Origin: an uncultured Planctomycetales bacterium | Lineage (GTDB): Bacteria; Omnitrophota; Gorgyraeia; Zapsychrales; JAHFFX01 | Length of the DNA: 64,000 bases | Assembly (NCBI GenBank): GCA_964612665.1 | Contig: CAZTCI010000008.1 | Span: 1,083-65,082 of the forward strand | Direction: 5' to 3' | Shown here: piece after piece, positions 3,286 through 59,423 of the stretch | Position numbering within the stretch: position 1 is the first letter of the stretch | Layout: the number at the start of each line of letters is the position of its first letter | The notes under the pieces: model-generated | What the model saw: only the letters and a program-made list of their open reading frames with translations | Told to the model about the DNA's origin: nothing | Database searches by the model: none | Program-made: the position numbers and the translations under genes

Positions 3286-6200
3286 TAACGCATTTGAATC
3301 TTAAAAATTTGCACCGTTCGCCAAGACTGAATAAATTTGTTCAGCTGTGGGAATTACTGACTTTTGCATTGCAAAAGTCTAGTACTAGGCCGTTTCTCCC
3401 TAAAAATGATAGAACAACCTTATCTTTGGGAGAGAAAAGGCCAGTAAGGTGGTTTTTTGCAATCGCGATTCTCATCGGATTATTGATGACACCGCGGCTA
3501 GGTTTTGCTGTTTCAGACACGGGATCTGAATCAATTCCTATCGGAACTAATGCCGGGAATAAATTGAATGTTGGTTCAGGAAAGTTTATCCTCGACGGGA
3601 ATACAAGCAACGTTGGAATTGGTTCAACAGTTCCAGCGGCGAAACTGGATGTGAATGGTTCCGTTAAAATTTGGACAGGCGCCGGCACAGATTCGAATGC
3701 CACCTCCGCCGGGGAATTGTATGTGGAAGGAGATTTAGAGGTGGATGGGTCGATTTATGGAAATGGGGCGAATATCAGCATTAGTAGTGGCGGCTGGACA
3801 GACGGCGGGACGAATGTGAATCTGGTAACGAACGGAGATAACGTTGCGATTGGGACAACGGCGTTTGCATCAAACGCAAAATTAACGGTCGCGGGCAACG
3901 GTTCATCGACGGGAATCAATACACAATTTCAAACGAATGCCGGTGCCGCGAAGATCACGATTCTGGATAATGGAAATGTAGGGCTAGGCTCAACGCTGCC
4001 GCAGCAGGTGTTGGACTTGGGATCAGGAAAAATTATTGGTGATGGTTCACTGTTGACAAGCCTGCCGAATCAGGGCTGGACGGACGGCGGGACGAATGTT
4101 TATGCGACGACGAATGGGGATAACGTGGCGATAGGAACGACAGGATTTGCGAGTAATGGAAAATTAACCATTGCGGGTAATGGATCATCGACGGGAATCA
4201 ATACGCAATGGCAGACAAATGTAGGAACACCGATTGTAACAATCTTGGACAATGGAAATATTGGGATAGGATCGACGCTGCCCCAGCAGGCGTTGGATTT
4301 GGGATCAGGAAAAATTATTGGCGATGCGGAATTTTTAACTAATGTGACCTTCGATGGATGGACTGATGGTGGAACAAATGTGTATATGAACTTTATTACA
4401 AACAATGTGGGTATTGGGACGAGTGTTCTTCCAAGTGCAAAGTTGACAATCGCAGGAAATGGATCATCAACGGGGATCAATACGCAGTTTCAGGCGAAGG
4501 GCGCGACAGCGAAGATCACGATTTTGGATAATGGGAATATAGGACTTGGTTCAACGCTGCCGGCGGTATTGTTAGATGTGACGAGTGGTGTTGTGAAGAT
4601 TTGGACAGGAACAGGGACGGACAACAATGCGACGTCAGCTGGCGAACTTTACGTCCAAGGAGATTTGGAAGTTGATGGATCCATATATGGAAATGGGGCG
4701 AACATCAGCAACGTTGACGGCGCAGGGTGGGCGGACGGCGGGACAAATGTTTATATGACGGCCAATGGAGATAACATAGCAATAGGGACAACGTCATTTG
4801 CGTCGAATGCAAAATTAACCGTGCAAGGGAATGGAACATCGACGAACATCATGACACAGTTTCGGGATTCCTCGGCGAATGCGAAGATCACGATTTTGGA
4901 TAATGGGAATGTGGGGATCGGATCAACGCTGCCGGGAACGTTGTTCGATGTAACAAATGGAGTTGTTAAAATTTGGACCGGGGCAGGGACGGATAATAAC
5001 GCGACATCGGCGGGTGAATTGTATGTTGAAGGAGATTTGGAAGTGGATGGATCGATTTATGGAAACGGAGCGAACATTACAAATATCAGTGCCGGCGGTT
5101 GGACAGACGGTGGGACAAATGTGAATTTGTCAACGAATGGAGACAATGTGGCGATCGGAACAACGTTATTTGCGTCGAATGCGAAGTTGACGGTGGCGGG
5201 TAACGGATCATCGACGAATATTATGGCGCAGTTCCAGGCGTCGGGTGGAACGGCGAAGGTGACAATTTTAGATAACGGGAATGTGGGAATAGGGACGACG
5301 AATTTAGGAGGAATGTTCACGATTCAGGGAGCTGGAACAACAACTGGACTTAACTTTCAGACGAAGAATTCTTCGGCAACGGCGTTGGTGACGGCGCAGG
5401 ATAGCGGTAATGTGGGAATAGGGTCATCGGTTCCGACGGGAAAATTGATTGTGCAGGGCGCAGGGTCTTCGACGGGAATCACGTTGCAGACGCAGAATTC
5501 CTCAGCGACGGCGTTAATGACGGCGCTTGATAACGGAAACGTCGGTATTGGTTCCACGGTACCGGCGCAGTTATTAGACATTGGAGGATCAGCAGGGAAC
5601 ATGACGTTCAGCCACGCGACGGGACCGCACAAAATTATCACGGCAGGAACAACGGACTTGGCGTTATCACCGGGAGGGAACGTTGGGATTAATACGACAA
5701 ATGTGACGGGAAAATTAACAATCCAAGGGACAGGAACAACGACGGCGATTAACTTCCAGACAAAAGATTCAAGCGCGACAGCGCTGGTGACGGGATTAGA
5801 TAATGGCAATGTTGGAATAGGTTCGACGGTACCGGCATTTAAATTAGATATAAATGGAGGGATCCAAGCGACCGGTTCATCAGATTCCTATTTAAACAGC
5901 AGCAGTGGAAACGTCGGGATCGGTTCAACGGTTCCGGCCCAGAAGTTGGATGTTAATGGAACAGTGCAGATGACGGGATTTAAATTAACGACATCACCGA
6001 CGAATGGATATGTGTTAGTTTCGGATTCTAACGGTGTTGGAAGTTGGTCAGTCCCCAGTGCTGGCGGCGGCTGGACGGATGGCGGGACAAATGTTTATGT
6101 GACGGCGAACGGCGACAATGTGGCGATAGGGACGACATCGTTTTCAAGTGGGAAACTGACGATTGCCGGCAATGGATCTTCGACGGCAATTAATACGCAA

Positions 6201-9611: not shown

Positions 9612-12600
9612 ATGACGTTAATGTTTATTTATACTTGCAAGTTTTTTAAGCAAATGAGAATTCATTTATTAAAGAATTGGTTAATGCTATGCCTCATCGG
9701 CCTGTTGATGACGCCGCGGCTGGTTTTAGCCATTTCCGACGGGACGGGATCTGAGACCATTCCTATTGGAACAGGTTCCGGGAATAAATTGGATGTCGGT
9801 TCGGGAAAGTTCATTGTCAACGGCAATACCACTAATGTGGGGATCGGCTCAACGGTGCCGGCGGCGAAACTGGACGTGAATGGTCCCGTTAAAATTTGGA
9901 CAGGCGCCGGCACAGATTCGAATGCCACCTCCGCCGGGGAATTGTATGTGGAAGGAGATTTAGAGGTGGATGGGTCGATTTATGGAAATGGGGCGAATAT
10001 CAGCAGCATTAATATTGGAGGTTGGACGGACGGCGGGACGAATGTGAATCTGGTAACGAACGGTGATAACGTTGCGATTGGGACAACGGCGTTTGCATCG
10101 AACGCAAAATTAACGGTCGCGGGCAACGGTTCATCGACGAACATTATGGCGCAGTTCCAGGCATCGGGCGGCTCAGCGAAAGCGACGATTTTAGACAATG
10201 GAAATGTTGGGTTAGGTTCGACGCTGCCTCAGCAGGTGTTGGACTTGGGATCAGGAAAAATTATTGGTGATGGTTCACTGTTGACAAGCCTGCCGAATCA
10301 GGGCTGGACGGACGGCGGGACGAATGTTTATGCGACGACGAATGGGGATAACGTGGCGATAGGAACGACAGGATTTGCGAGTAATGGAAAATTAACCATT
10401 GCGGGTAATGGATCATCGACGGGAATCAATACGCAATGGCAGACGAATGCAGGCTTGGCGAAGATAACAATTTTAGATAATGGAAATATTGGAATCGGCT
10501 CGACGTTGCCTCAGCAGGCGTTGGATTTGGGAGCAGCTGGAGGCATTGTTGGTGATGGGTCATTGGTATATAACACTACTGGATCAGGTTGGACGCATGG
10601 TAGGACAATTCTGTATCTGGAGACGAATAGCGATAATGTGTCGATCGGGTCAACGAATTCGTCCTTGTCGCCTGGGAAGCTGACGATAGCAGGAAATGGA
10701 TCATCAACCGGAATCAATACGCAGTTTCGGGACGTCTCAGGAACAGCGACAATCACAATTTTGGATAATGGAAATATAGGACTTGGTTCGACGCTGCCAG
10801 CGTCATTATTGGATGTGACGAATGGAGTTGTGAAGGTCTGGACAGGAGGAGGAACGGACAATAACGCGACATCAGCGGGTGAATTGTATGTCGAAGGTGA
10901 TTTGGAAGTGGATGGATCGATTTATGGGGATGGGGCGAATATTTCAGGAATAGCTGGTGCTAACGGCTGGACCGATGGCGGAACGAATGTTTATCTGACG
11001 GCGAATGGAGATAACATAGCCATCGGGACGACAGGTTTTGCCTCGAATGCGAAATTGACGGTCAAGGCCAATGGAAGTTCAACCAACATCAGTACGCAGT
11101 TCCGGGATTCATCGGCGAACGCGAAGGTGACGATTTTGGATAATGGAAATATAGGACTTGGTTCGACGCTGCCAGCGTCATTATTGGATGTGACGAATGG
11201 AGTTGTGAAGGTCTGGACAGGAGGAGGAACGGACAATAACGCGACATCAGCGGGTGAATTGTATGTCGAAGGTGATTTGGAAGTGGATGGATCGATTTAT
11301 GGGGATGGGGTGAATATTACAGGAATCGCTGCTGGTGCGAACGGCTGGACGGACGGTGGGACTAATGTGAATCTGGCAACGAACGGCGATAACGTTGCGA
11401 TTGGGACAACGGCGTTTGCGTCGAATGCGAAGTTGACGGTGGCGGGTAATGGATCATCAACGAACATGATGACACAGTTTCAAACGTCAGGTGGGACGGC
11501 GAAGATGACGATTTTAGATAACGGGAATGTTGGGATTGGGACGACGAATTTGGGAGGCATGTTCTCGATTCAAGGAGCGGGAACAACGACGGGACTTAAT
11601 TTTCAAACAAAAAATTCCTCAGCAACGGCGCTGGTGACGATGCAGGATAGCGGGAATGTGGGGCTCGGGTCATCAGTTCCAACGGGAAAGTTGATCGTCC
11701 AAGGGGCGGGAACGACAACGGGGATCACATTGCAGACACAAAATTCATCAGCGACGGCTCTCGTGACGGCGCTTGATAACGGAAACGTCGGGATCGGTTC
11801 AACTGTGCCGACGCAGTTATTGGACATTGGAGGATCAGCAGGGAATATAACGTTCAGCCATGCGACGGGGCCGCATCAGATTGCAACGGGTGGTTCAAGT
11901 GATTTGTCGTTATCACCTGGAGGCAACGTTGGGATCAATACAACCAGTGTAGGAGGAAAATTAGTTATTCAAGGAGCAGGAACGACGACGGGAATTAATT
12001 TCCAGACAAAAGATTCAAGCGCCACGGCGCTGGTGACGGGATTAGATAACGGGAATGTCGGGATCGGCTCAACCGTTCCGGCGTACAAGTTAGATGTTAA
12101 TGGTGGAATTCAAGCGACGGGAGCCGGAGATTCTTATTTGGCGAGTAGTGGAAACAATGTGGGCATTGGCTCAACCGTTCCGGCGCAGAAATTGGATGTG
12201 AATGGAACCGTGCAGATGACCGGCTTTAAATTAACGACTTCCCCGACAAATGGATATGTATTGACATCGGATGCCAACGGTGTGGGGACATGGTCAGCAT
12301 CCGTAAGTGCCGCCGGAGGCTGGACGGATGGTGGAACGAATGTTTATGTGACGACCAACGGCGACAATGTGGCGATTGGGACAACGTTATTTTCCAGTGG
12401 GAAACTAACCATTGCAGGTAATGGTTCTACGACGGGAATTAATACACAATTCCGGACGAACGCCGGAACAGCGAAGATAACTATTCTTGATAATGGAAAT
12501 ATCGGGATTGGTTCGACCCTCCCTCAGCAGGTGCTGGATATCGGATCAAATAAGATCATCGCAGACGGATCCTTAATGACGAGTGTGCCTGGCTCAGGCT

Positions 12601-15787: not shown

Positions 15788-15825
15788 CAACCGCGGGGAA
15801 TGAACAGGTTCATTCCCCGCGGTTG
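15788..15825. repeat. REP-like perfect palindrome (caaccgcggggaatgaac-ag-gttcattccccgcggttg). It overlaps the 3' end of the RAYT gene and probably acts as a bidirectional terminator.
   Basis: An 18-bp perfect inverted repeat, extended by acctccacc. Related copies are at 16651-16729 and 59359-59400. Confidence 0.8.
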
Positions 15826-16650: not shown

Positions 16651-16729
16651 AACCGCGGGGGTTGAATGAACCTATTCAACCGCGGGGAATGAACAGGTTC
16701 ATTCAACCCCCGCGGTTGGTGGAGGTAAA
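16651..16729. repeat. Nested REP palindrome cluster (BIME-like) on the 5' side of the RAYT, in inverted orientation relative to the 15788 copy.
   Basis: The arm ccgcgggggttgaatgaac pairs with gttcattcaacccccgcgg. An embedded second copy is caaccgcggggaatgaacaggttcattc. The terminal ggtggaggt is the reverse complement of acctccacc at 15779. Confidence 0.75.
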
Positions 16730-34922: not shown

Positions 34923-37106
34923 ATGTCAGATTATTTATCAACGGAAAATAAAAAGTATAGTAACCGGCTGGCCCGCGAAAAAAGTCCTTATCTATTACAG
35001 CACGCGCATAATCCAGTGGATTGGTTTCCGTGGGGTGAGGAAGCTTTTCTTAAAGCCAAAAAAGAAGACAAGCCGATTTTTCTTTCGATTGGTTATTCGA
35101 CCTGCCACTGGTGTCATGTCATGGAACACGAATCATTCAAAGACGAAGAGACCTCCCGGATTTTAAACGAATTTTTTGTACCGATCAAGGTTGATCGGGA
35201 AGAGCGGCCGGACATTGATCATATTTATATGCTTGCCGTGTCATCCATGACGGGTCAGGGCGGCTGGCCGTTAAACGCTTTCTTGACGACCGATTTAAAA
35301 CCGTTTTATGGCGGCACCTATTTTCCTCCCGAAGCGCGTTGGGGCCAGCCAGCCTTTAGAGATGTTTTAAAAGCGATCCATGACGCCTGGCTTAACCGTC
35401 GCGAACAAATCATTGAGTCTAGCGCGTCTTTGATTCAAAACTTACAAGAACGACTCAGCGCCAAGCGCCAAGAAGAAACTCTTAATCCGGATATCCTGGG
35501 TCGTGCCTTTCAACAGTTTCATGGACAATTTGATGAACGCTACGGCGGGTTCGGTGACCAGCCCAAATTTCCGACGGGGCACAATCTTATGTTTCTGCTG
35601 CGCTACTGGCACAGGGAGTTGGAAGATAACGCGCTCATGATGGTTGACAAAACTTTGAGACACATGGCCCGCGGGGGAATTTATGATCAACTCGGCGGTG
35701 GATTTCACCGTTACTCAACGGATTCTCAATGGCAGATCCCGCATTTTGAAAAAATGCTTTATGACCAGGCGATTTTGGCGCGCAGTTACCTTGAAGCTTA
35801 TCAAGCAACGCACAATGAAGAGTATCGGCGGATGGTTGAAGAAATTTCGGATTATGTCCTGCGTGATCTGCGCGATCCGCGGGGCGGATTTTATTCAGCG
35901 GAAGATGCGGATAGTCTTGAAGAGAAGAAACGAGAGACGAATGAGGTGTCGTCCATCGTCCATCGTCCATCGTCTCTCGTTAAAAAAGAAGGCGCTTTTT
36001 ATCTCTGGCGCTTTACTGAAATGGAAACCATATTAGAGAAAGATGCGCTGGTTTTTAATTATTATTTTGGGATTGAAAAAGAAGGCAACGCACAGTTCGA
36101 TCCGCATGGCGAATTTGTTGGTAAGAATGTTTTATACATCGTCCATACTTTGGAAGAAACGGCACAGAAATTCAATATGCCGGTTGAAGAAGTCAAGAGT
36201 CTTATCAAACGTTCCAAAGAAAAACTTTTAAACGCGCGGGAAAAGCGCCCGCGTCCGCATTTAGATGACAAAATCCTCGTCGATTGGAATGGCTTGATGA
36301 TCGGTGCTCTAGCGATCGCTGGCCGGGTTTTGAATGATGACCGTTACAAGAAAGCCGCTGTCAGCGCCGCAGAATTTATATTGAATAATTTAGTTAATAA
36401 CGAAGGCCGGCTTTTGCATCGTTATCGCGATGGTGAATCTGCGATTCAGGGAACGATTGGTGATTACGCGTTTTTTATTCATGGATTATTGGAGTTGTAT
36501 GAAGCAACTTTTGAGGTGAGGTTTCTTGAAGAAGCGCTCAAGTTTGCGGATAAAATGCTCAAATTATTTTGGGATGAGAAAGAAGGCGGATTTTTTATGA
36601 CAGAGTCAACCGGCCCAGACCTTATCTTGCGTCCCAAAGAAATCTACGACGGCGCGATCCCGTCGGGTAATTCAATTGCTTCGTTGGATTTAATCCGGTT
36701 ATATTATCTGACCATGGACAAACGCTGGCTTGATAAGGTTGAAAGCAACTTTGCAGTCTTTGCCCATGAAATCAGCCGGGTCCCCAGCGCTTATGCGCAA
36801 ATGCTGATTGCTTATGATTTTTTTGTTGGCCCAGTCAAAGAAATTGTGATTGTGCCGGGTTCAAAAGAAGATAACGGAACAGTTTTAAACATGATTCAAC
36901 ACGTTTACGCCCGTTTTCTTCCGAATAAAGCTGTGATTGTGAAGCCCTTTGATCCAATATCAAATGAAAAATTGGTTAAACTGATCCCTACCATTAAAGA
37001 TCAGGGGTCAGTTGAAGGAAAGACGAGCGTCTATATTTGTCAAAATCATGTGTGCCAGCGGCCTATTATTAGGGAAGAAGAGCTTGATGTTCTTTTGAAC
37101 GAATGA
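34923..37106 (+). CDS. Thioredoxin-domain-containing protein (DUF255/YyaL family; thioredoxin-like N-domain fused to a six-hairpin N-acylglucosamine-2-epimerase-like domain).
   Basis: The N-terminal signature is [49 protein letters not shown]. The protein is 727 aa. Confidence 0.85.
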
Positions 37107-45593: not shown

Positions 45594-45602
45594 ATCGGTA
45601 AT

Positions 45603-45706
45603 GGTTAAGGTTGCGTAGCTGGTATCGTTAAACGTTAATCGGTAATTTAAAATTTCTTTATTACGTTACCTCAACCGCATAACGATACGAGCTACGAAAA
45701 CGTAAC
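45603..45706. repeat. Imperfect ~47-bp inverted-repeat pair forming a long hairpin (MITE-like element or long-stem terminator) between the GT2 gene and recG.
   Basis: The left arm is ggttaaggttgcgtagctggtatcgttaaacg. The reverse complement of the right arm is ggttacgttttcgtagctcgtatcgttatgcg. They share the core cgtagctNgtatcgtta. Confidence 0.45.
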
Positions 45707-45750
45707 CTTTATACGAAACCTGCCTTTTCATAATCTATCAATCCCAAATC

Positions 45751-47832: not shown

Positions 47833-47833
47833 T

Positions 47834-47926
47834 CGTCGTTCGTTGTTCGTCGTTTGAGGAATTCGTTTTTTTCTTCGGGTATAAAAGAACGCTATAACGA
47901 ACAACGAAAGCACGAACAACGAAATT
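47834..47926. repeat. Solo ('empty') copy of the inverted-repeat element that bounds the four-helix-bundle cassette at 51894-52363.
   Basis: tcgtcgttcgttgttcg..tgaggaattcgttttttt is followed by the inverted aaaagaacg..cgaacaacgaaagcacgaacaacgaa. It shares the cgttgttcg and gaggaattcgttctttt cores with the inverted repeats flanking the four-helix-bundle gene. Confidence 0.6.
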
Positions 47927-47937
47927 GGAGAATTCAC

Positions 47938-49757: not shown

Positions 49758-49909
49758 AGCAATTTTTAAAATTCGAATTTCTAAATTCTAAACAATCTCT
49801 AAATTCAGAAACACCAATGTTTCAAACTTTGAATTGTTTGGAATTTGGAAATTAGGATTTCGAATTTGTTTAGGATTTAGAAGAATTTTACTAAACTTAG
49901 GAGATTTCC

Positions 49910-50905
49910 GTGAAGATAATCGTTGACGCGATGGGAGGCGATCACGCTCCGCAAGCCATTATTGCGGGTGTGGTTGAAGCCATTAAAGAATTTCATCCGC
50001 ATATTGTCCTCGTCGGTGACCAGGCCCGCGTTGAAACAGAGCTTAAAAAACATACCTTTCCCCGAGACTACATCGAAATCGTTCATGCGCCTGAATCAAT
50101 CGATATGCATGAACCCGCGACCGCCAGTATCCGTAAGAAAAAAAATTCCTCAATCTCAATCGGAATTAATCTTTTAAAAGATCCAAAATACAGCGCCTTT
50201 ATCAGTGCCGGCAACACCGGCGCGGTTGTGTGCGCTTCCACTGTTTATCTGGGAATGATTCCCGGCGTTGAACGCCCGGGCATTGGACTTGCCATTCCAA
50301 CCTTGGATAAATTGTCGCTCTTGCTTGATATCGGTGCGAACGCGGATCCCAAGGCGCCGCATCTTTTGCAGTATGCGGTTATGGCCAGTGTCTATGTGCG
50401 TGAGGTTTTAGATATTCCGAATCCGCGCATCGGGCTGGTTAATATCGGTGAGGAAGAAGGCAAGGGAACGGAGTTTCAAAAAGAAACGTATAAGCTCATG
50501 GCTGATAAATTAAAGAATTTTATCGGCAACATTGAACCTAACGAAATTTTTTCCGGAAAGTGCGATTGTATTATTTGCGATGGGTTCGTCGGGAATGTCA
50601 TGATCAAAGTCTCCGAAGGTTTAACCGAATCCGCCGGCACGCTTATTAAACGTGAAATTGGAAAAAGTCCGCTTGCACTCCTCGGCGCGTGGCTTATGAA
50701 ATCCCGCTTAATGCATGTTAAAAAATTAGTCGATTATTCTGAATACGGCGGCGCGCCGCTGCTCGGTGTTAACGGTGTTGTTATGATCAGCCACGGGCGC
50801 TCAAGTCCAAAGGCAATTAAAAACGCGATCCGCTCAACCCAGCGCGAAATTGAACACAATATTCTTTCTACCTTAAAGACTGAGGTCTCTGGGACATCCG
50901 CATGA
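49910..50905 (+). CDS. plsX: Phosphate acyltransferase PlsX.
   Basis: The start is GTG. The N-terminus is MKIIVDAMGGDHAPQAII. It shows the classic rpmF-plsX-fabH linkage. Confidence 0.9.
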   Translation: MKIIVDAMGGDHAPQAIIAGVVEAIKEFHPHIVLVGDQARVETELKKHTFPRDYIEIVHAPESIDMHEPATASIRKKKNSSISIGINLLKDPKYSAFISAGNTGAVVCASTVYLGMIPGVERPGIGLAIPTLDKLSLLLDIGANADPKAPHLLQYAVMASVYVREVLDIPNPRIGLVNIGEEEGKGTEFQKETYKLMADKLKNFIGNIEPNEIFSGKCDCIICDGFVGNVMIKVSEGLTESAGTLIKREIGKSPLALLGAWLMKSRLMHVKKLVDYSEYGGAPLLGVNGVVMISHGRSSPKAIKNAIRSTQREIEHNILSTLKTEVSGTSA

Positions 50906-51879
50906 AAAATATTGGTATTATTGGCCTCGGACATTACCTGCCGCATCGACGTCTCACCAATTCTGATCTTGAAAAAATAGTTGATACGACCGATGAATGG
51001 ATCACGAGCCGCACGGGTATCAAAGAGCGCCGCATCGCCGCTCAAGGCGAGAAGACGAGTCACTTGGCGGTTATGGCCGCTCAGGAAGCATTAAAGAACG
51101 CCCATCTTTCACCGGAAGCAATCGACTTAATCATCGTCGCGACGGTCAGTCCCGACAGCAATTTCCCTTCAACCGCTTGTCTTGTCCAAAAAACAATCGG
51201 CGCCAAAAACGCCGCGGCCTTTGATTTAAGCGCCGCGTGCGCCGGTTATCTTTATGCCATCACCACTGGCAAACAATTTATTCAAAGTGGACTTTACAAA
51301 AAAGTTTTAGTTATCGCATCCGAACGCATCACGTCTTTACTTGATTGGAAAGACAGAAATACTTGCGTGCTTTTCGGCGATGGCGCTGGCGCTTGTGTTC
51401 TTTCTGAAGTTGACAAAGGCGGCATTGTTTCTGAATATCTTTTTAGTCAGGGTGAGTATGGTGATTTGATGACGGTTATGGTGGATGATAGCCGCGACGT
51501 CATGGACCAAGACACGCTGCATGTCAAAATCCCGTCGGTTGTGATGCAGGGAAAGGAACTTTTTAAATTTGCGGTGAATTCCATGGCGGATGCCGTCGAG
51601 ATGGTCGTTAAAAAAGCCGGGATTCATCTTTCCGACATTAACTGTGTTGTGCCGCATCAGGCGAACGACCGGATTATCTCGGCGGTGGCGAAGAAACTTG
51701 AAATTCCGAAAGAAAAAATTTTTGTAAACATTCATCGCTATGGAAATATGTCAGCGGCGTCGATCGCCGTTGCTTTGTACGAGGCGGTTGAACAGGGACG
51801 GATTCGAAAGGGAGACACGGTTGTCTTGGTTGCGTTTGGGGCGGGGTTGGTGAGTGGGGCTAGTGTGGTGGTGTGGTAG
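50902..51879 (+). CDS. fabH: 3-oxoacyl-ACP synthase III (FabH).
   Basis: The N-terminus is IGIIGLGHYLPHRRLTNSDLEKIVDTTDEWITSRTGIKERRIA, and the active-site region follows. There is an ATGA overlap with plsX. Confidence 0.9.
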   Translation: MKNIGIIGLGHYLPHRRLTNSDLEKIVDTTDEWITSRTGIKERRIAAQGEKTSHLAVMAAQEALKNAHLSPEAIDLIIVATVSPDSNFPSTACLVQKTIGAKNAAAFDLSAACAGYLYAITTGKQFIQSGLYKKVLVIASERITSLLDWKDRNTCVLFGDGAGACVLSEVDKGGIVSEYLFSQGEYGDLMTVMVDDSRDVMDQDTLHVKIPSVVMQGKELFKFAVNSMADAVEMVVKKAGIHLSDINCVVPHQANDRIISAVAKKLEIPKEKIFVNIHRYGNMSAASIAVALYEAVEQGRIRKGDTVVLVAFGAGLVSGASVVVW

Positions 51880-51893
51880 TTTCGTCTTAATTG

Positions 51894-51937
51894 GTCGTTC
51901 GTTTTTCGTTGTTCGAGGAATTCGTTCTTTTAAAAGT
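51894..51937. repeat. Left terminal inverted repeat of the four-helix-bundle gene cassette.
   Basis: tcgttcgtttttcgttgttcgaggaattcgttcttttaaaag. The reverse complement of 52328-52363 matches a 26-bp perfect core (cgttgttcgaggaattcgttctttta). Confidence 0.7.
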
Positions 51938-51952
51938 ATTCAACAAGAGGAG

Positions 51953-52324
51953 ATGACAACTATGAAAGTAAAGAATTATAAAGACTTGGATGTTTGGAAC
52001 AAAGGCATCGATATTGTGGATAGCATTTATGATCTTACTGAAAATTATCCTGCGAAAGAACAATACGGTTTGGTTGTCCAGATGCGAAAAGCTGCTGTCA
52101 ATATTCCCTCGAATATCGCTGAAGGATTTATTCGTCAGCATAATAAAGAGTTTGTTCAATTCTTATATGTATCATTAGGTTCAGCCGCAGAATTAGAAAC
52201 TCAACTGATCATTTCTTACAGACGAAAGTTTATTCAAGAATCCAACTTAATTGATTTACAAGAAGCCCTTGATCATGAGAGCCGTATGCTGATGAATTTT
52301 ATTAAAAGTTTAAAACAAAAATAA
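51953..52324 (+). CDS. Four-helix-bundle protein (TIGR02436, the '23S rRNA intervening-sequence protein' family).
   Basis: The family signature is (MTT)MKVKNYKDLDVWNKGIDIVDSIYDLTENYPAKEQYGLVVQMRKAAVNIPSNIAEGF..SLGSAAELETQLIIS. There is an AAGAGGAG RBS. The protein is ~123 aa. Confidence 0.8.
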   Translation: MTTMKVKNYKDLDVWNKGIDIVDSIYDLTENYPAKEQYGLVVQMRKAAVNIPSNIAEGFIRQHNKEFVQFLYVSLGSAAELETQLIISYRRKFIQESNLIDLQEALDHESRMLMNFIKSLKQK

Positions 52325-52327
52325 CAA

Positions 52328-52363
52328 CTAAAAGAACGAATTCCTCGAACAACGAACGACGAA
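52328..52363. repeat. Right terminal inverted repeat of the four-helix-bundle gene cassette; it abuts the fabD start.
   Basis: ctaaaagaacgaattcctcgaacaacgaacgacgaa is the reverse complement of the left inverted repeat. Confidence 0.7.
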
Positions 52364-53287
52364 ATGACAAATATAGCTCTAATTTTCCCCGGCCAAGGCG
52401 CCCAGCGCGTCGGCATGGGCAGGGAATTTTACGAAAACTCCGCCGAAGCGCGCGCGGTTTTTGATGCGGCTGATAAAATTCTAGGTAACGGTCTAAGCTC
52501 CGTTATCTTCAACGGCCCGCCGGAGCAATTGACGTCGACTACTTTTTGCCAGTCAGGGATTCTAACTTGTAGTGTTGCCATTCTTAAAGCTTTTCAACAG
52601 CATTCTAAATTTAAAGAAGTGAATGTGAAGTTTACCGCGGGTTTAAGTCTTGGCGAATATCCGGCGCTTGTCGCGGCGGATGCCTTGGGATTTGAAGAAG
52701 CGTTGCGTTTGGTTGAACGCCGTTCGTTTTTTATGGAAGAAGCGACCAAACTCGAAAAAGGCGCGATGGCGGCGGTGATTGGATTTAATAAGGAACGTTT
52801 GGTTGCGATTTGTCAGCAAACCGGCGCGCAAATCGCCAATTACAATTCACCCGAACAAATTGTTATTACCGGTCAAGCCGCGAAAGTTGAGGCGGCCTGC
52901 CGCCTTATTAAGGAAGAGGGAGCGAAGACGGTTATTCCGCTTGATGTGAGCGGCGCTTTTCATTCGAGTCTCATGCAGTCCGCTTCCGATAAGTTCGCCC
53001 AGGAATTAAAAAATTTTAAATTCACGCGGGCGGCCATCGACGTTATTTCCAACGTAAATGGCCGCCCACAGCGCGACCCCGCCGAAATCCAAAACAATCT
53101 CGCCCAACAAATCGTTTCTTCAGTCCAATGGGAACAATCCGTCCGTTATATCGCCGGTTGTGGCGTCACAACATTTATTGAAATAGGTCCTGGAAAAGTT
53201 TTAAAAGGTCTTCTGCGCAAAACCGATCCCAATCTCCGTGTTTTTAATATTGAAACGCCAGGAGATTTAGAAAATTTAGTATTATAA
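52364..53287 (+). CDS. fabD: Malonyl-CoA:ACP transacylase (FabD).
   Basis: IALIFPGQGAQRVGMG is followed by the GLSLGEYPALVAADAL active-site serine motif. Confidence 0.9.
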   Translation: MTNIALIFPGQGAQRVGMGREFYENSAEARAVFDAADKILGNGLSSVIFNGPPEQLTSTTFCQSGILTCSVAILKAFQQHSKFKEVNVKFTAGLSLGEYPALVAADALGFEEALRLVERRSFFMEEATKLEKGAMAAVIGFNKERLVAICQQTGAQIANYNSPEQIVITGQAAKVEAACRLIKEEGAKTVIPLDVSGAFHSSLMQSASDKFAQELKNFKFTRAAIDVISNVNGRPQRDPAEIQNNLAQQIVSSVQWEQSVRYIAGCGVTTFIEIGPGKVLKGLLRKTDPNLRVFNIETPGDLENLVL

Positions 53288-53312
53288 AGAAAGTCTTTTC
53301 TATCGTAATAAG

Positions 53313-53361
53313 CGCGGGGCTGGTCGATCAAAAAACGGATCGACCAGCCCCGCGCGTTTTT
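53313..53361. terminator. Bidirectional rho-independent terminator between convergent genes.
   Basis: cgcggggctggtcgatc-aaaaaacg-gatcgaccagccccgcg is followed by ttttt and preceded by aaa. Confidence 0.75.
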
Positions 53362-58091: not shown

Positions 58092-58637
58092 ATGCCAATA
58101 AAAAAATCTCCCATCATTTATACAATCGGCCATTCCACGCACCCAATCGAAAAGTTTGTGGTGATTCTGAAAAACTTTAAGATCAAAGAATTAATTGATG
58201 TGCGCACGATTCCAAAATCCCGTTTTAATCCGCAGTTCAATCAAGAGGCGCTTTCGCGCAAACTAAAATTAGAACATATAATCTGCGAACATATGCCTGG
58301 CCTCGGCGGGCTGAGGCACGCTAAAAAAGATTCCATCAACAAAGCCTGGCGCAACGCCTCGTTTAGGGGATTCGCCGATTACATGCAGACCCCAGAGTTC
58401 GATGAGAATCTGCACCAACTTATCAAAAAATCTAAAAAACACCGGACCGTTATCATGTGCGCCGAAGCTGTGCCCTGGCGCTGCCACCGTTCGCTTATCG
58501 CGGATGCGTTGACTGCAGATGGGTTTGAAGTAAGAGACATCATGAGCGCGCATCAAGATACCGTGCATAAAATAAATCCAATGGCCAAGATTAAGGAAGG
58601 GAAAGTGCATTATCCAGGGGAACAGATGGAATTTTAA
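58092..58637 (+). CDS. DUF488-family protein.
   Basis: The N-terminus IYTIGHSTHPIEKFVVILKNFKIKELIDVRTIPKSRFNPQFN...GLGGLRH matches the DUF488 signature. Confidence 0.7.
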   Translation: MPIKKSPIIYTIGHSTHPIEKFVVILKNFKIKELIDVRTIPKSRFNPQFNQEALSRKLKLEHIICEHMPGLGGLRHAKKDSINKAWRNASFRGFADYMQTPEFDENLHQLIKKSKKHRTVIMCAEAVPWRCHRSLIADALTADGFEVRDIMSAHQDTVHKINPMAKIKEGKVHYPGEQMEF

Positions 58638-58696
58638 ATGATCAGGACTTTCGCGTTTGGCTGTTCTCTCACGGAGAACCTGTTCTGCCTTTTCTA

Positions 58697-58788
58697 CTGA
58701 CTTTTGCAATGCAAAAAGTCTAGTACTAAGGCCTTTTCTCCCCGAGAATGATAGAACAACTTTATCTTTGGGAGAGAAAAGGCCAGCA
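58697..58788 (+). repeat. ~95-bp structured repeat element, copy 3, immediately upstream of a signal-peptide gene.
   Basis: It aligns with copies 1 and 2: tactgacttttgcaatgcaaaaagtctagtactaaggccttttctcccc...gggagagaaaaggccagcaa. Confidence 0.7.
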
Positions 58789-58908
58789 ATACTAATGAAG
58801 GCAGAGCTGGTTCTCAGTTCGTTCACAACCAAACGCGAAAGTCCTAATGATGTAACAATTACAGAAATCGGCTCAGTTGTGAACTTAACATTAACGAAAG
58901 GAGACTTC

Positions 58909-59343
58909 ATGAGGACGAAATTAACCGGTGTGATTTTAGGTGTAGCGATTTTTGCGTTTTGCCGGATCGGCGCAGCGGCGGACGATGGTTTTGTGGCGAG
59001 CAAAGGTTCCGATAAATACCACGTTACGACCTGCAGTGTCGCGAAACAAATTAAGCCAGAAAAACGTATTCATTTCAATTCAGAAAGTGAAGCCGTTAAA
59101 GCCGGCTACACGCCTTGTAAGCTTTGTATTAAAAGAAACGCTAAAAAAATTGCCTTTGTGGCCAGCAAAGATTCGGATAAATACCATTTACCGACGTGCA
59201 AAATGGCTGCCAAGATTAATTCTAATAAACAGGTGACCTTTGCTAGTCAAGAGGAAGCCGAGAAAGCTGGCTATAAACCCTGCCAGATTTGTCTTCCTTC
59301 GGCGCCGGCTGCGAATGATATGAAGAAAAAGTCGAAGAAATAA
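58909..59343 (+). CDS. Secreted protein with two tandem Ada-type Zn-binding-like (Cys4) domains.
   Basis: ATG 58909 has an AAAGGAGA RBS. The signal peptide is MRTKLTGVILGVAIFAFCRIGAAA. The two repeats are SKGSDKYHVTTCSVAK..FNSESEAVKAGYTPCKLC and SKDSDKYHLPTCKMAA..FASQEEAEKAGYKPCQIC, which resemble the Ada N-terminal E.A..AG.RPCK.C motif. Confidence 0.55.
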   Translation: MRTKLTGVILGVAIFAFCRIGAAADDGFVASKGSDKYHVTTCSVAKQIKPEKRIHFNSESEAVKAGYTPCKLCIKRNAKKIAFVASKDSDKYHLPTCKMAAKINSNKQVTFASQEEAEKAGYKPCQICLPSAPAANDMKKKSKK

Positions 59344-59358
59344 TGACTTTGACCAAAT

Positions 59359-59400
59359 CAACCGCGGGGGTTGAATGAATTCATTCAACCCCCGCGGTTG
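59359..59400. repeat. Orphan REP palindrome (same family as the RAYT-flanking REPs); probable terminator.
   Basis: caaccgcgggggttgaatgaa-t-tcattcaacccccgcggttg is a 20-bp perfect inverted repeat. Confidence 0.8.
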
Positions 59401-59423
59401 AAGGGTCAAGAGGGAGAGGAACA

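Follow-up and report, generated by a model that had tools for sequence, protein, structure and literature searches.

A four-helix-bundle gene within inverted heptad arms at the fabH-fabD junction of an Omnitrophota genome

In a 64,000-nt stretch of contig CAZTCI010000008.1 (GenBank assembly GCA_964612665.1, Omnitrophota), hereafter the window, the spacer between fabH and fabD was filled entirely by a single element of 484 nt (51880-52363). From 5' to 3' it consists of a repeat arm, a ribosome-binding site, a 120-aa gene of the four-helix-bundle family PF05635/TIGR02436, known as the 23S rRNA intervening sequence (IVS) protein, and a second arm complementary to the first. We favor, with moderate confidence, the reading that this is an IVS-type cassette residing in an mRNA operon: a promoter-less PF05635 gene within inverted arrays of ~7-nt units, placed between the fabH stop and the fabD start. 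The architecture, the status as an insertion, the sense orientation, the stop-to-start fit, the matched but variable arms, the gene-less hairpins that share units with the cassette, and the phylogenetic breadth of the design were all computed directly.

The cassette at the fabH-fabD junction

A preliminary description of this locus had reported inverted repeats of about 35 bp with a 26-bp perfect core, reaching from the fabH stop to the fabD ATG, and our analyses bore this out. The inverted repeat (51898-51932 / 52329-52363) was 35 nt long and 94% complementary, with 396 nt between its halves, and the arm match scored z = 26 against shuffled flanks. The perfect core CGTTGTTCGAGGAATTCGTTCTTTTA (26 nt, at 51907-51932 in the 5' arm) occurred exactly twice in the 64 kb, once on each strand, against an expectation of 0 from 100 shuffles. 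The outermost heptamers were paired as well, TTTCGTC (51880-51886) directly 3' of the fabH stop with GACGAAA (52357-52363) directly 5' of the fabD ATG, so that the element is the whole spacer. Tandem Repeats Finder (TRF) called a period of 7 in the 5' arm (51897-51915). When the RNA of the region was folded, the arms formed a long outer stem in both the minimum free energy (MFE) and the centroid structure (z = -3.6).

No promoter-like site was found inside the cassette, and the sole strong terminator-like hairpin on the + strand between 45.5 and 53.5 kb was located just past fabD. For this latter reason the gene string, in which plsX precedes fabH, is probably read through the cassette. Scans of the window with Rfam (at the gathering threshold) and for tRNAs returned no match, rRNA included. 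The edges of the element (51880/52363) showed no target-site duplication, the flanks GGTAG-element-ATGAC having no direct repeat. The 13-kb stretch that holds the cassette was base-for-base identical in Logan assemblies of four sequencing runs, located via the 120-aa protein and fabD. The closest homologues of FabD and of the four-helix-bundle protein carry names that likewise place the organism among uncultured Omnitrophota.

The gene itself matched PF05635 (E = 1.1e-34, 119.3 bits, cut-off 33.8) and TIGR02436 (E = 8e-33, 112.9 bits, cut-off 24). The earlier claim that a member of the latter family interrupts plsX-fabH-fabD as an insertion was upheld; the length of 123 aa given for it was not. 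The likely start is the ATG at 51962 (120 aa) and not that at 51953 (123 aa), because gene callers use the former, homologues begin MKVKxYK there, and GAGGAG stands 10 nt upstream of it. An AlphaFold model (pLDDT 95.9) contained four helices arranged as a four-helix bundle. In Foldseek searches it superimposed on PDB 2GSC (Xanthomonas XCC0516; TM 0.90, rmsd 0.9 A), on 2RLD (TM 0.8), and on Avd of diversity-generating retroelements (DGRs; 4DWL, TM 0.77). Both structures of closer homologues, 2GSC and 2RLD, contain five chains. The window protein scored 17.6 bits against the Avd equivalog NF033474 (cut-off 80) and, as read from its sequence, is not basic, unlike Avd. Profile searches gave no transposase family matching the gene, PADLOC gave no match, the sole PHROGs match was a weak one to "Avd of DGR", and no relatives were found in viral contigs. 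Avd forms pentamers and binds an RNA stem-loop (bioRxiv 10.1101/2023.10.23.563531); because it is the only characterized relative, we predict that the window protein most likely binds its own repeat arms.

We compared five other Omnitrophota contigs that carry the string recG-rsmD-coaD-yceD-rpmF-plsX-fabH-fabD, with FabD 64-69% identical. In three of them (L093, L097 and L098) fabH and fabD overlap or abut, reading TGGTAATGA or similar, and no hairpin is present. Because these junctions are empty, the gene and its arms in the window are an insertion. The remaining two were loaded. The L092 junction holds a ~70%-identical pseudogene of the window gene, in which ATA replaces the start codon and which is split by a MITE-like insertion of ~140 nt (MITE, miniature inverted-repeat transposable element); its arms, of the CGTGACT/CGTGATT type, are diverged but still paired. 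In L094 a divergent member of the family occupies the junction, and its arms (GTCACAA / TTGTGAC) are quite different. A gene at fabH-fabD without inverted repeats, the observation that the preliminary description had named as its own refutation, was thus not found, both loaded sites being armed. These comparisons show that the cassette is old at this site, having been there since the window and L092 lineages split (69% FabD identity), and that the site was hit or replaced more than once. The MITE-like insertion in the L092 pseudogene (9700-9840) has terminal inverted repeats of its own (GTGTCCACTGAAAAAG / CTTTTTCAGTGGGAAC) and a possible TAATTA duplication.

Heptad arms across the gene family

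Eighty metagenomic loci encoding homologues at 38-65% identity were surveyed. Nearly all of them had a ~7-nt tandem run upstream of the gene and its reverse complement downstream. The repeat unit varies by locus (CGTGATT, AGTGAAT, GTATCTC, GGACTCG and AGCAGAA are examples), and the two arms of each cassette are complementary although the unit changes between cassettes. Inverted-repeat (IR) scores were computed for the 60 homologous cassettes flanked by 160 nt or more on each side and for 383 control positions. Scores of at least 30 were obtained for 40 of the 60 cassettes and for a single control; at a threshold of 24 the counts were 50 and 13. The best flank period was 7 in 97 of 120 cassette flanks, compared with 93 of 766 control flanks. 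Tandem arrays of period 7 numbered 104 in 358 kb, when each other period from 4 to 12 gave at most 20, and control loci totalling 54.8 kb contained no heptad array.

The arms had a median length of 32 nt and were 82% complementary. They fit closely between the neighboring genes: the 5' arm begins a median of 1 nt past the stop of the upstream gene and ends 19 nt before the start codon of the family gene, and the 3' arm begins 3 nt past its stop and ends 15 nt before the start of the next gene. Both neighbors were co-directional with the gene in 29 of 36 cases and both antisense in one. Arm mismatches were more often G.U-compatible (69) than A.C (42, p = 0.013), a modest bias that favors pairing of the arms in the sense RNA. 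In 41 of 47 cassettes the arms were polarized, G/T-rich on the 5' side and A/C-rich on the 3' side; conceivably, a 5' arm rich in C would, when unpaired and untranslated, serve as a loading site for Rho.

A weak core, xGT(A/C)T, was common to the units (3.85 bits vs. 2.62 +/- 0.21 for shuffled units), and arm similarity tracked protein similarity (rho 0.38, 0 of 1000 permutations). Paralogues on one contig differ in unit, as in L092 (CGTGACT, GGGTGAG and GGATCAG). When arrays more than 250 nt from a cassette were compared with 47 candidate cassette arms, 8 of 42 matched best the arm of their own locus (expected 0.9). There was no second cargo family, because the open reading frames (ORFs) between other array pairs encode ordinary host functions (a response regulator, a pseudouridine synthase, ClpX and an ABC ATPase). 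Heptad arms flank most family members in several phyla, and the gene is therefore no chance passenger of one MITE; the proposal of a MITE-like element that had "captured" it was not supported in that form.

The same design was present in named organisms. In Xanthomonas campestris, X. sacchari, Stenotrophomonas and Dyella a four-helix-bundle gene lies in sense orientation between accB and accC, within GGGAATC arms. The 5' arm GGGAATCGGGAGTGGAGAATCGGGAATC begins a few bases past the accB stop, and the 3' arm (e.g. CCCATTCCCCATTCTCGACTCCCTATTCCC) extends to the accC ATG in all but X. sacchari, where it stops 7 nt short. The X. campestris gene is XCC0516, the source of PDB 2GSC. The GGGAATC unit is conserved across genera in which the protein is 78-90% identical, and three Xanthomonadales genera have solo GGGAATC hairpins in the groES-groEL spacer. 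In X. campestris, GGGAATC arrays number 186, of which 70 are convergent inverted pairs (Rehm 2015, PMC4692102). The supplement of that paper lists array #15 as "overlapping the start codon" of XCC0516, and the paper does not mention the PF05635 protein family (PMC4692102). Starts of the four-helix-bundle genes in Xanthomonadales were called at varying points, some within the 5' repeat arm (L095 9929-10001; L096, L099 and L100 near 10001). Because callers start inside the arm, the annotated XCC0516 start being a GTG inside the GGGAATC array, database N-termini of the family are unreliable.

A tblastn search of PLSDB yielded 26 plasmids, mostly of Nostoc, Calothrix and Anabaena, and both arms were present in 8 of the 10 plasmid loci inspected. 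These were Nostoc edaphicum between nrdB and nrdA (GGGAGTA x8 / CCCTACT x4), N. punctiforme between hypothetical genes (CAGGAGT / GACTCCT), Calothrix brevissima past an integrase-family gene (GGGTGTA / TACACCC), Calothrix PCC 7716 between hlyD and an ABC gene (TTAGCTG / AGCTAAA), Geminocystis between parA and parB (AAGGGAA / TTTTCCC), Picosynechococcus between cmr2 and cmr3 (GGAGATA / TATCTCC), Riemerella past an Fe-S cluster accessory gene (AAGGTTC / GAACCTT), and Gemmatirosa at a site unannotated in the record (GGGCAGGA / TCCTGCCC). Plasmids alpha and gamma of Nostoc sp. PCC 7120 (L107, L108) carry identical genes with a 3' arm only (CTCTGCC x5) and have an ISL3-family transposase gene where the 5' arm would be; here the gene may be moving as part of a segment bounded by insertion sequences. 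Inverted heptad arms around the gene thus occur in Omnitrophota, Xanthomonadales, cyanobacteria, Bacteroidota and Gemmatimonadota. On the plasmid of Picosynechococcus sp. PCC 7003 (L110, 1201-1557) the cassette separates cas10/cmr2 from cmr3 in a type III-B CRISPR operon. Insertions of this kind could be the reason why Altae-Tran et al. 2023 list "23S rRNA IVP" with CRISPR-associated genes.

Gene-less hairpins and other features of the window

The solo copy that had been reported between recG and rsmD is real and gene-less. It occupies most of the spacer (47833-47937), and its 5' arm is identical to that of the cassette at 34 of 38 positions. The hairpin is imperfect (MFE z = -1.9) because its 3' arm is without the GAGGAATT segment (eight bases missing). 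TRF called period 7 at 47833-47854 and at 47896-47923. Exact copies of TTCGTTGTTCG (five) and of GAGGAATTCGTT (three) in the 64 kb were all in the cassette and solo loci; short-motif matches at 10652 and 24830 lie inside coding sequence and were dismissed as chance. The 64 kb of the home genome hold one loaded copy and one related solo. No further copies of the 26-nt core came to light in the window, and its 20-nt core was absent in cassette context from 185,579 reference genomes, a set that does not include the window's own genome. The five matches to it in those genomes were inside GC-rich coding sequence and were attributed to chance.

Two more spacers of the same co-directional gene string contain hairpins with heptad arms of other sequence (Table 1). 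Between 44 and 54 kb TRF found seven arrays, six of them of period 7, and all six lie in the four hairpin or cassette spacers. The only period-7 array of the window outside a spacer was CGTCCAT x3 at 35942-35984, inside a long ORF (34923-37106).

L092 also has a solo hairpin at recG-rsmD, in the same position as in the window, and this solo shares the exact 18-mer TCGTGACTCGTCGCTCGT with the arm of the L092 cassette. The arms of the window and of L092 are only weakly alike. Solo and cassette are thus alike within a genome and weakly so between genomes, which means that arms at sites 4 kb apart change together within a genome. The junction between a histidine kinase and a response regulator is loaded with a cassette in L092 and holds a solo hairpin in L097.

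Hairpins with TAGCG(N)A units recur across Omnitrophota contigs (L033 1958-2182, L038 543-825, L094 5546-5584, L097 19004-19084), and the one in L097 is that at the histidine-kinase/response-regulator junction. Two single arrays of L094, at 5546-5584 (AGCGGAT-type) and 9968-10004 (the complement, ACGCTAT-type), are complementary at 19 of 23 positions and 4.4 kb apart. They bracket rsmD to fabH plus the four-helix-bundle cassette, which could mean long-range pairing or rearrangement between hairpins.

Table 1. Positions of the cassette, its host genes and the spacer hairpins in the window.
Feature	Coordinates	Strand	Basis and remarks
Spacer hairpin, glycosyltransferase gene-recG	45599..45711	+	heptad arms, ATCGTTA/GGTAATG-type unit; inverted repeat 32 nt, 84% complementary; TRF period 7
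Solo hairpin, recG-rsmD spacer	47833..47926	+	5' arm ~47833-47872, 3' arm ~47881-47926; same repeat family as cassette arms
Spacer hairpin, rpmF-plsX	49764..49868	+	heptad arms, AAATTCT / TTTGGAA (different unit, opposite polarity); RNA fold -42.2 kcal/mol, z = -5.5
fabH (3-oxoacyl-ACP synthase III), upstream host gene	50902..51879	+	ORF; Pfam ACP_syn_III PF08545, ACP_syn_III_C PF08541; stop TAG 51877-51879
Cassette 5' arm	51880..51932	+	degenerate heptad array, TTCG phase: TCGTTCG TTTTTCG TTGTTCG, then GAGGAATTCGTTCTTTTA segment
Shine-Dalgarno-like GAGGAG of four-helix-bundle gene	51946..51951	+	in loop just past 5' arm; sequence reading
Four-helix-bundle gene, PF05635/TIGR02436 '23S rRNA IVS protein', 120 aa	51962..52324	+	profile matches, gene callers; alternative ATG 51953
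Cassette 3' arm	52329..52363	+	reverse complement of 5' arm; last base directly adjoins fabD ATG
fabD (malonyl-CoA:ACP transacylase), downstream host gene	52364..53287	+	ORF; PF00698; initiation region inside 3' arm
Intrinsic-terminator-like hairpin past fabD	53312..53355	+	18 pairs, 14 G-C; strongest such site on + strand, 45.5-53.5 kb

Several other features of the window were recorded. A family of GC-rich palindromes, CAACCGCGGGG(G/A)TGAA...TTCA..CCCCGCGGTTG, is found just past gene ends (15788-15825, 16651-16718, 59358-59401 and 53307-53360); these are REP-like or terminator-like in look and unrelated to the heptad hairpins. The longest inverted repeat of the window (58634-58691 / 58798-58855; 58 nt, 79% complementary, 106 nt apart) is at the junction of ORFs 58092-58637 and 58657-59343. 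Four consecutive very long + strand ORFs (1075, 2083, 2053 and 3020 aa) lie within 58-34385, and together with one of 2206 aa they cover over half of the window. A protein of 1350 aa that has Big_7/Pel9A-like repeats is encoded on the - strand downstream of fabD.

Interpretation and comparison with known systems

If the element is an IVS-type cassette, its transcription would come about by read-through of the host operon. Its arms would then pair in the RNA into a stem of 35 bp or more, with the ORF looped out and the fabH stop brought beside the fabD start. By analogy with rRNA IVSs, RNase III would cut this stem, freeing a monocistronic four-helix-bundle mRNA and leaving the host messages usable. 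Arms built of tandem units would tolerate the gain or loss of whole units with pairing kept, as Coxiella strains show. More speculatively, translational coupling may survive: the stem spans the distance from the upstream stop to the downstream start, so that a ribosome finishing fabH could open its base and make the fabD start accessible.

A number of observations weigh against this reading. We infer each of its three steps, namely transcription across the cassette, formation of the stem and cutting by RNase III, and the G.U bias that favors pairing in RNA is only modest. The heptad periodicity of the window cassette is weak (about three clear units, TRF score 31), and its heptads are recognized mainly through comparison with relatives. 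No Shine-Dalgarno sequence is visible at the fabD start, which lies buried within the stem, and the cost or benefit to the host is therefore ambiguous. L097 has solo hairpins and no four-helix-bundle gene within 20 kb. The cassettes of Nostoc edaphicum (nrdB-nrdA) and Calothrix PCC 7716 are antisense to the host operon, which read-through does not explain, and the Coxiella IVS ORF is seemingly untranslated and decaying (PMC4990558). Finally, selection on an RNA stem alone fails to explain the likeness of solo and cassette within a genome or the conservation of GGGAATC across genera, and the weak common core xGT(A/C)T is likewise left unexplained by RNA pairing alone. These three points call for exchange at the DNA level, sequence-specific recognition, or both, and the encoded protein is the obvious candidate for such a process. 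In our reading the arms belong, at the DNA level, to a REPIN-like repeat family of heptamer hairpins, loaded and empty, that is kept similar within a genome and has the four-helix-bundle gene as its associated gene.

An alternative that is compatible with the IVS-type cassette, and adds a role for the protein, is that the latter serves the arrays as a dedicated trans-acting partner, in the way that RAYT serves REP/REPIN elements or TRAP its repeat RNA. A pentamer would bind the 7-nt repeats (RNA or DNA) of its own gene and of the solos, and would either autoregulate or maintain and spread the arrays. We put this forward tentatively. A gene flanked by repeats that are dispersed in the genome is the signature by which RAYTs were identified, and the accB-accC gene carries the very GGGAATC unit of the 186 Xanthomonas arrays with their 70 inverted pairs (PMC4692102). 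The differing units of the L092 paralogues, the tracking of unit with protein similarity, the conservation of the unit across genera and the shared core all point the same way, as do the five chains of 2GSC and 2RLD, the RNA-binding Avd pentamer and an arm length of ~4-5 units. On the other side, binding of the repeats by the protein is a prediction, the protein is not basic as Avd is, and the correlations of gene with arm are equally expected from shared descent. The L097 solos have no such gene nearby, and the family is without a recognizable catalytic motif for DNA cleavage. The more specific notion of a pentamer binding five repeats is unsupported, since the commonest Xanthomonas array length is 4 units (PMC4692102).

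A wider proposal, which we likewise regard as possible and no firmer, is that PF05635 proteins, the family giving rise to Avd, are the dedicated partners of heptamer hairpins in general, including the cyanobacterial short tandemly repeated repetitive (STRR) sequences, the Xanthomonas GGGAATC arrays and the window arms. The pentamer of each lineage would recognize its own 7-nt unit. Gene plus arms would constitute an autonomous element, and the gene-less hairpins at operon junctions or in structural RNAs would be its non-autonomous copies, an arrangement resembling REPIN-RAYT with an RNA- or DNA-binding bundle instead of a transposase.

It is unlikely, in our estimate, that the hairpins are devices of the host (mRNA stabilizers, or signals for translational coupling or processing, like REP/BIME) and that the gene is a secondary invader of their loops, in the way that IVSs replace the tetraloops of helices 9, 25 and 45 of rRNA (PMC4990558). 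Solos do stand at conserved junctions (recG-rsmD in the window and L092, groES-groEL in three Xanthomonadales genera), and one and the same junction may be empty, solo or loaded according to genome, the histidine-kinase/response-regulator junction being an example. The empty fabH-fabD sites, however, have no hairpin of any kind, their stop and start codons overlapping, and each paralogue has its own unit, with gene and arms co-diverging, which fits a cassette that brings its own arms.

The element had also been described as MITE-like. Part of this stands, as it is an insertion with inverted arms and a gene-less relative, related genomes have empty sites, and a true MITE-like insertion with clear terminal inverted repeats (TIRs) exists in these genomes, in the L092 pseudogene. 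A classical MITE, that is, a non-autonomous transposon with TIRs whose transposase is elsewhere, whose passenger is the gene and whose empty copy is at recG-rsmD, is nevertheless quite improbable. Terminal inverted repeats are present only in the form of heptad arrays that vary between cassettes, with no single conserved TIR, and neither a target-site duplication nor a transposase was seen. The gene is constant and the arm sequence variable, the same gene family being so armed in at least five phyla; the similarity of arms follows that of the proteins; the cassette was retained at fabH-fabD over the divergence of the window and L092 lineages; and the exact 20-nt core was not found in cassette context in the reference genomes. 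Chance or neutral slippage, by which AT-rich spacers gather short tandem repeats with a coincidental inverted repeat, could appeal to the low complexity of the spacers and the weak heptad signal in the window, and is refuted by the zero expectation for the 26-nt core, the IR scores of at least 30 in 67% of cassettes vs. 0.3% of controls, the enrichment of period 7 alone and the array-free control loci.

The preliminary description had suggested a bearing on the puzzle of IVS-encoded genes, and the size and layout of the Coxiella IVS (PMC4990558) agree with this. Two puzzles more than 30 years old, the conserved ORF found in 23S IVSs and at scattered loci and the heptamer repeats of cyanobacteria and Xanthomonas, may be one. 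The data indicate that the IVS is only the rRNA-resident case of a widespread cassette that is wedged, hairpin included, between the stop and start codons of conserved operons (fabH-fabD, accB-accC, nrdB-nrdA, parA-parB, cmr2-cmr3). The function of the protein can thereby be tested in a cultured organism, Xanthomonas, whose family member XCC0516 has a solved structure (PDB 2GSC). The apparent "associations" of the family with other systems, such as CRISPR modules, may be trivial in cause, and its genes are extended or mis-started into the repeat arms by gene callers. A full-text literature search that covered few subscription journals found no paper linking PF05635 to heptamer arrays beyond a remark on Coxiella, and an earlier description is possible.

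Among known systems, an integron cassette was ruled out, as the element has two arms and not one attC, no integrase and no cassette array. The protein shares its fold with the pentameric Avd of DGRs, and the five chains of 2GSC and 2RLD recall the Avd pentamer. A DGR was ruled out, however, by the score below the Avd cut-off and the lack of a nearby reverse transcriptase (none among the genes up to 7 kb upstream or 5 kb downstream). Neither a template repeat nor a variable repeat is nearby, and the protein is not basic. The Correia/nemis MITEs of Neisseria are reportedly mRNA hairpins processed by RNase III (De Gregorio et al.). Like the window element they are inverted-repeat elements in transcribed spacers, and their cleavage alters the stability of the flanking message, as we would predict here. 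Correia elements differ from the cassette in that they lack an ORF, possess fixed TIRs with a TA target duplication, and are not known outside Neisseria.

The heptamers of heterocystous cyanobacteria are said to have been described as STRR sequences (GGGGAYT) by Mazel et al. 1990. They and the Xanthomonas heptamers resemble the arms in their period of 7, their intergenic position, their frequent length of 4-5 units and their frequent occurrence as convergent inverted pairs (70-75 per Xanthomonas genome; PMC4692102). XCC0516 is bracketed by GGGAATC itself, and the four-helix-bundle genes of Nostoc and Calothrix are bracketed by G-rich heptamers. These repeats differ in having been interpreted as simple repeats that form G-quadruplexes, with no associated gene. 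G-quadruplexes were ruled out as a general explanation here, as most units, including the GT-rich unit of the window, lack G-runs.

REP (repetitive extragenic palindromic) sequences and REPINs, with their associated gene for the tyrosine transposase RAYT, reportedly form a comparable pair (Nunvar 2010; Bertels and Rainey 2011). RAYT is an HUH/Y1 transposase with a known DNA-cleaving fold. The likeness extends to dispersed intergenic inverted-repeat hairpins, a single associated gene flanked by inverted repeats, a repeat sequence proper to each gene class, and vertical persistence at conserved sites. The inverted repeats that flank the gene considered here are likewise scattered elsewhere in the genome as hairpins without a gene, in the window, in L092, in Xanthomonadales and in the 8 of 42 distant arrays. 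It differs in being a four-helix-bundle gene and not a RAYT, with enzymatic activity not known, and in arms that are tandem heptads and not a single palindrome.

The closest parallel is offered by the 23S IVSs with an S23p/PF05635 ORF of Coxiella and Leptospira. The Coxiella IVS is 444 nt long, against 484 nt here, and carries a gene of the same family in the loop of a long terminal stem, of 28 bp in Coxiella, where RNase III cuts it mid-stem, and 35 bp here (PMC4990558). Tandem GACAGAT heptamers, whose number varies by strain, precede the S23p ORF in the 5' stem region (PMC4990558). Sense orientation in a highly transcribed unit and a sporadic distribution are further common traits. The host in the window is an mRNA operon junction, fabH-fabD, and not helix 9, 25 or 45 of 23S rRNA. 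Excision by RNase III was established experimentally for the IVSs of Coxiella, Leptospira and Salmonella (PMC4990558) and is predicted here, and gene-less copies and a family-wide heptad architecture are undescribed for IVSs. By this analogy the element would work like a 23S IVS, while by its location it is not one.

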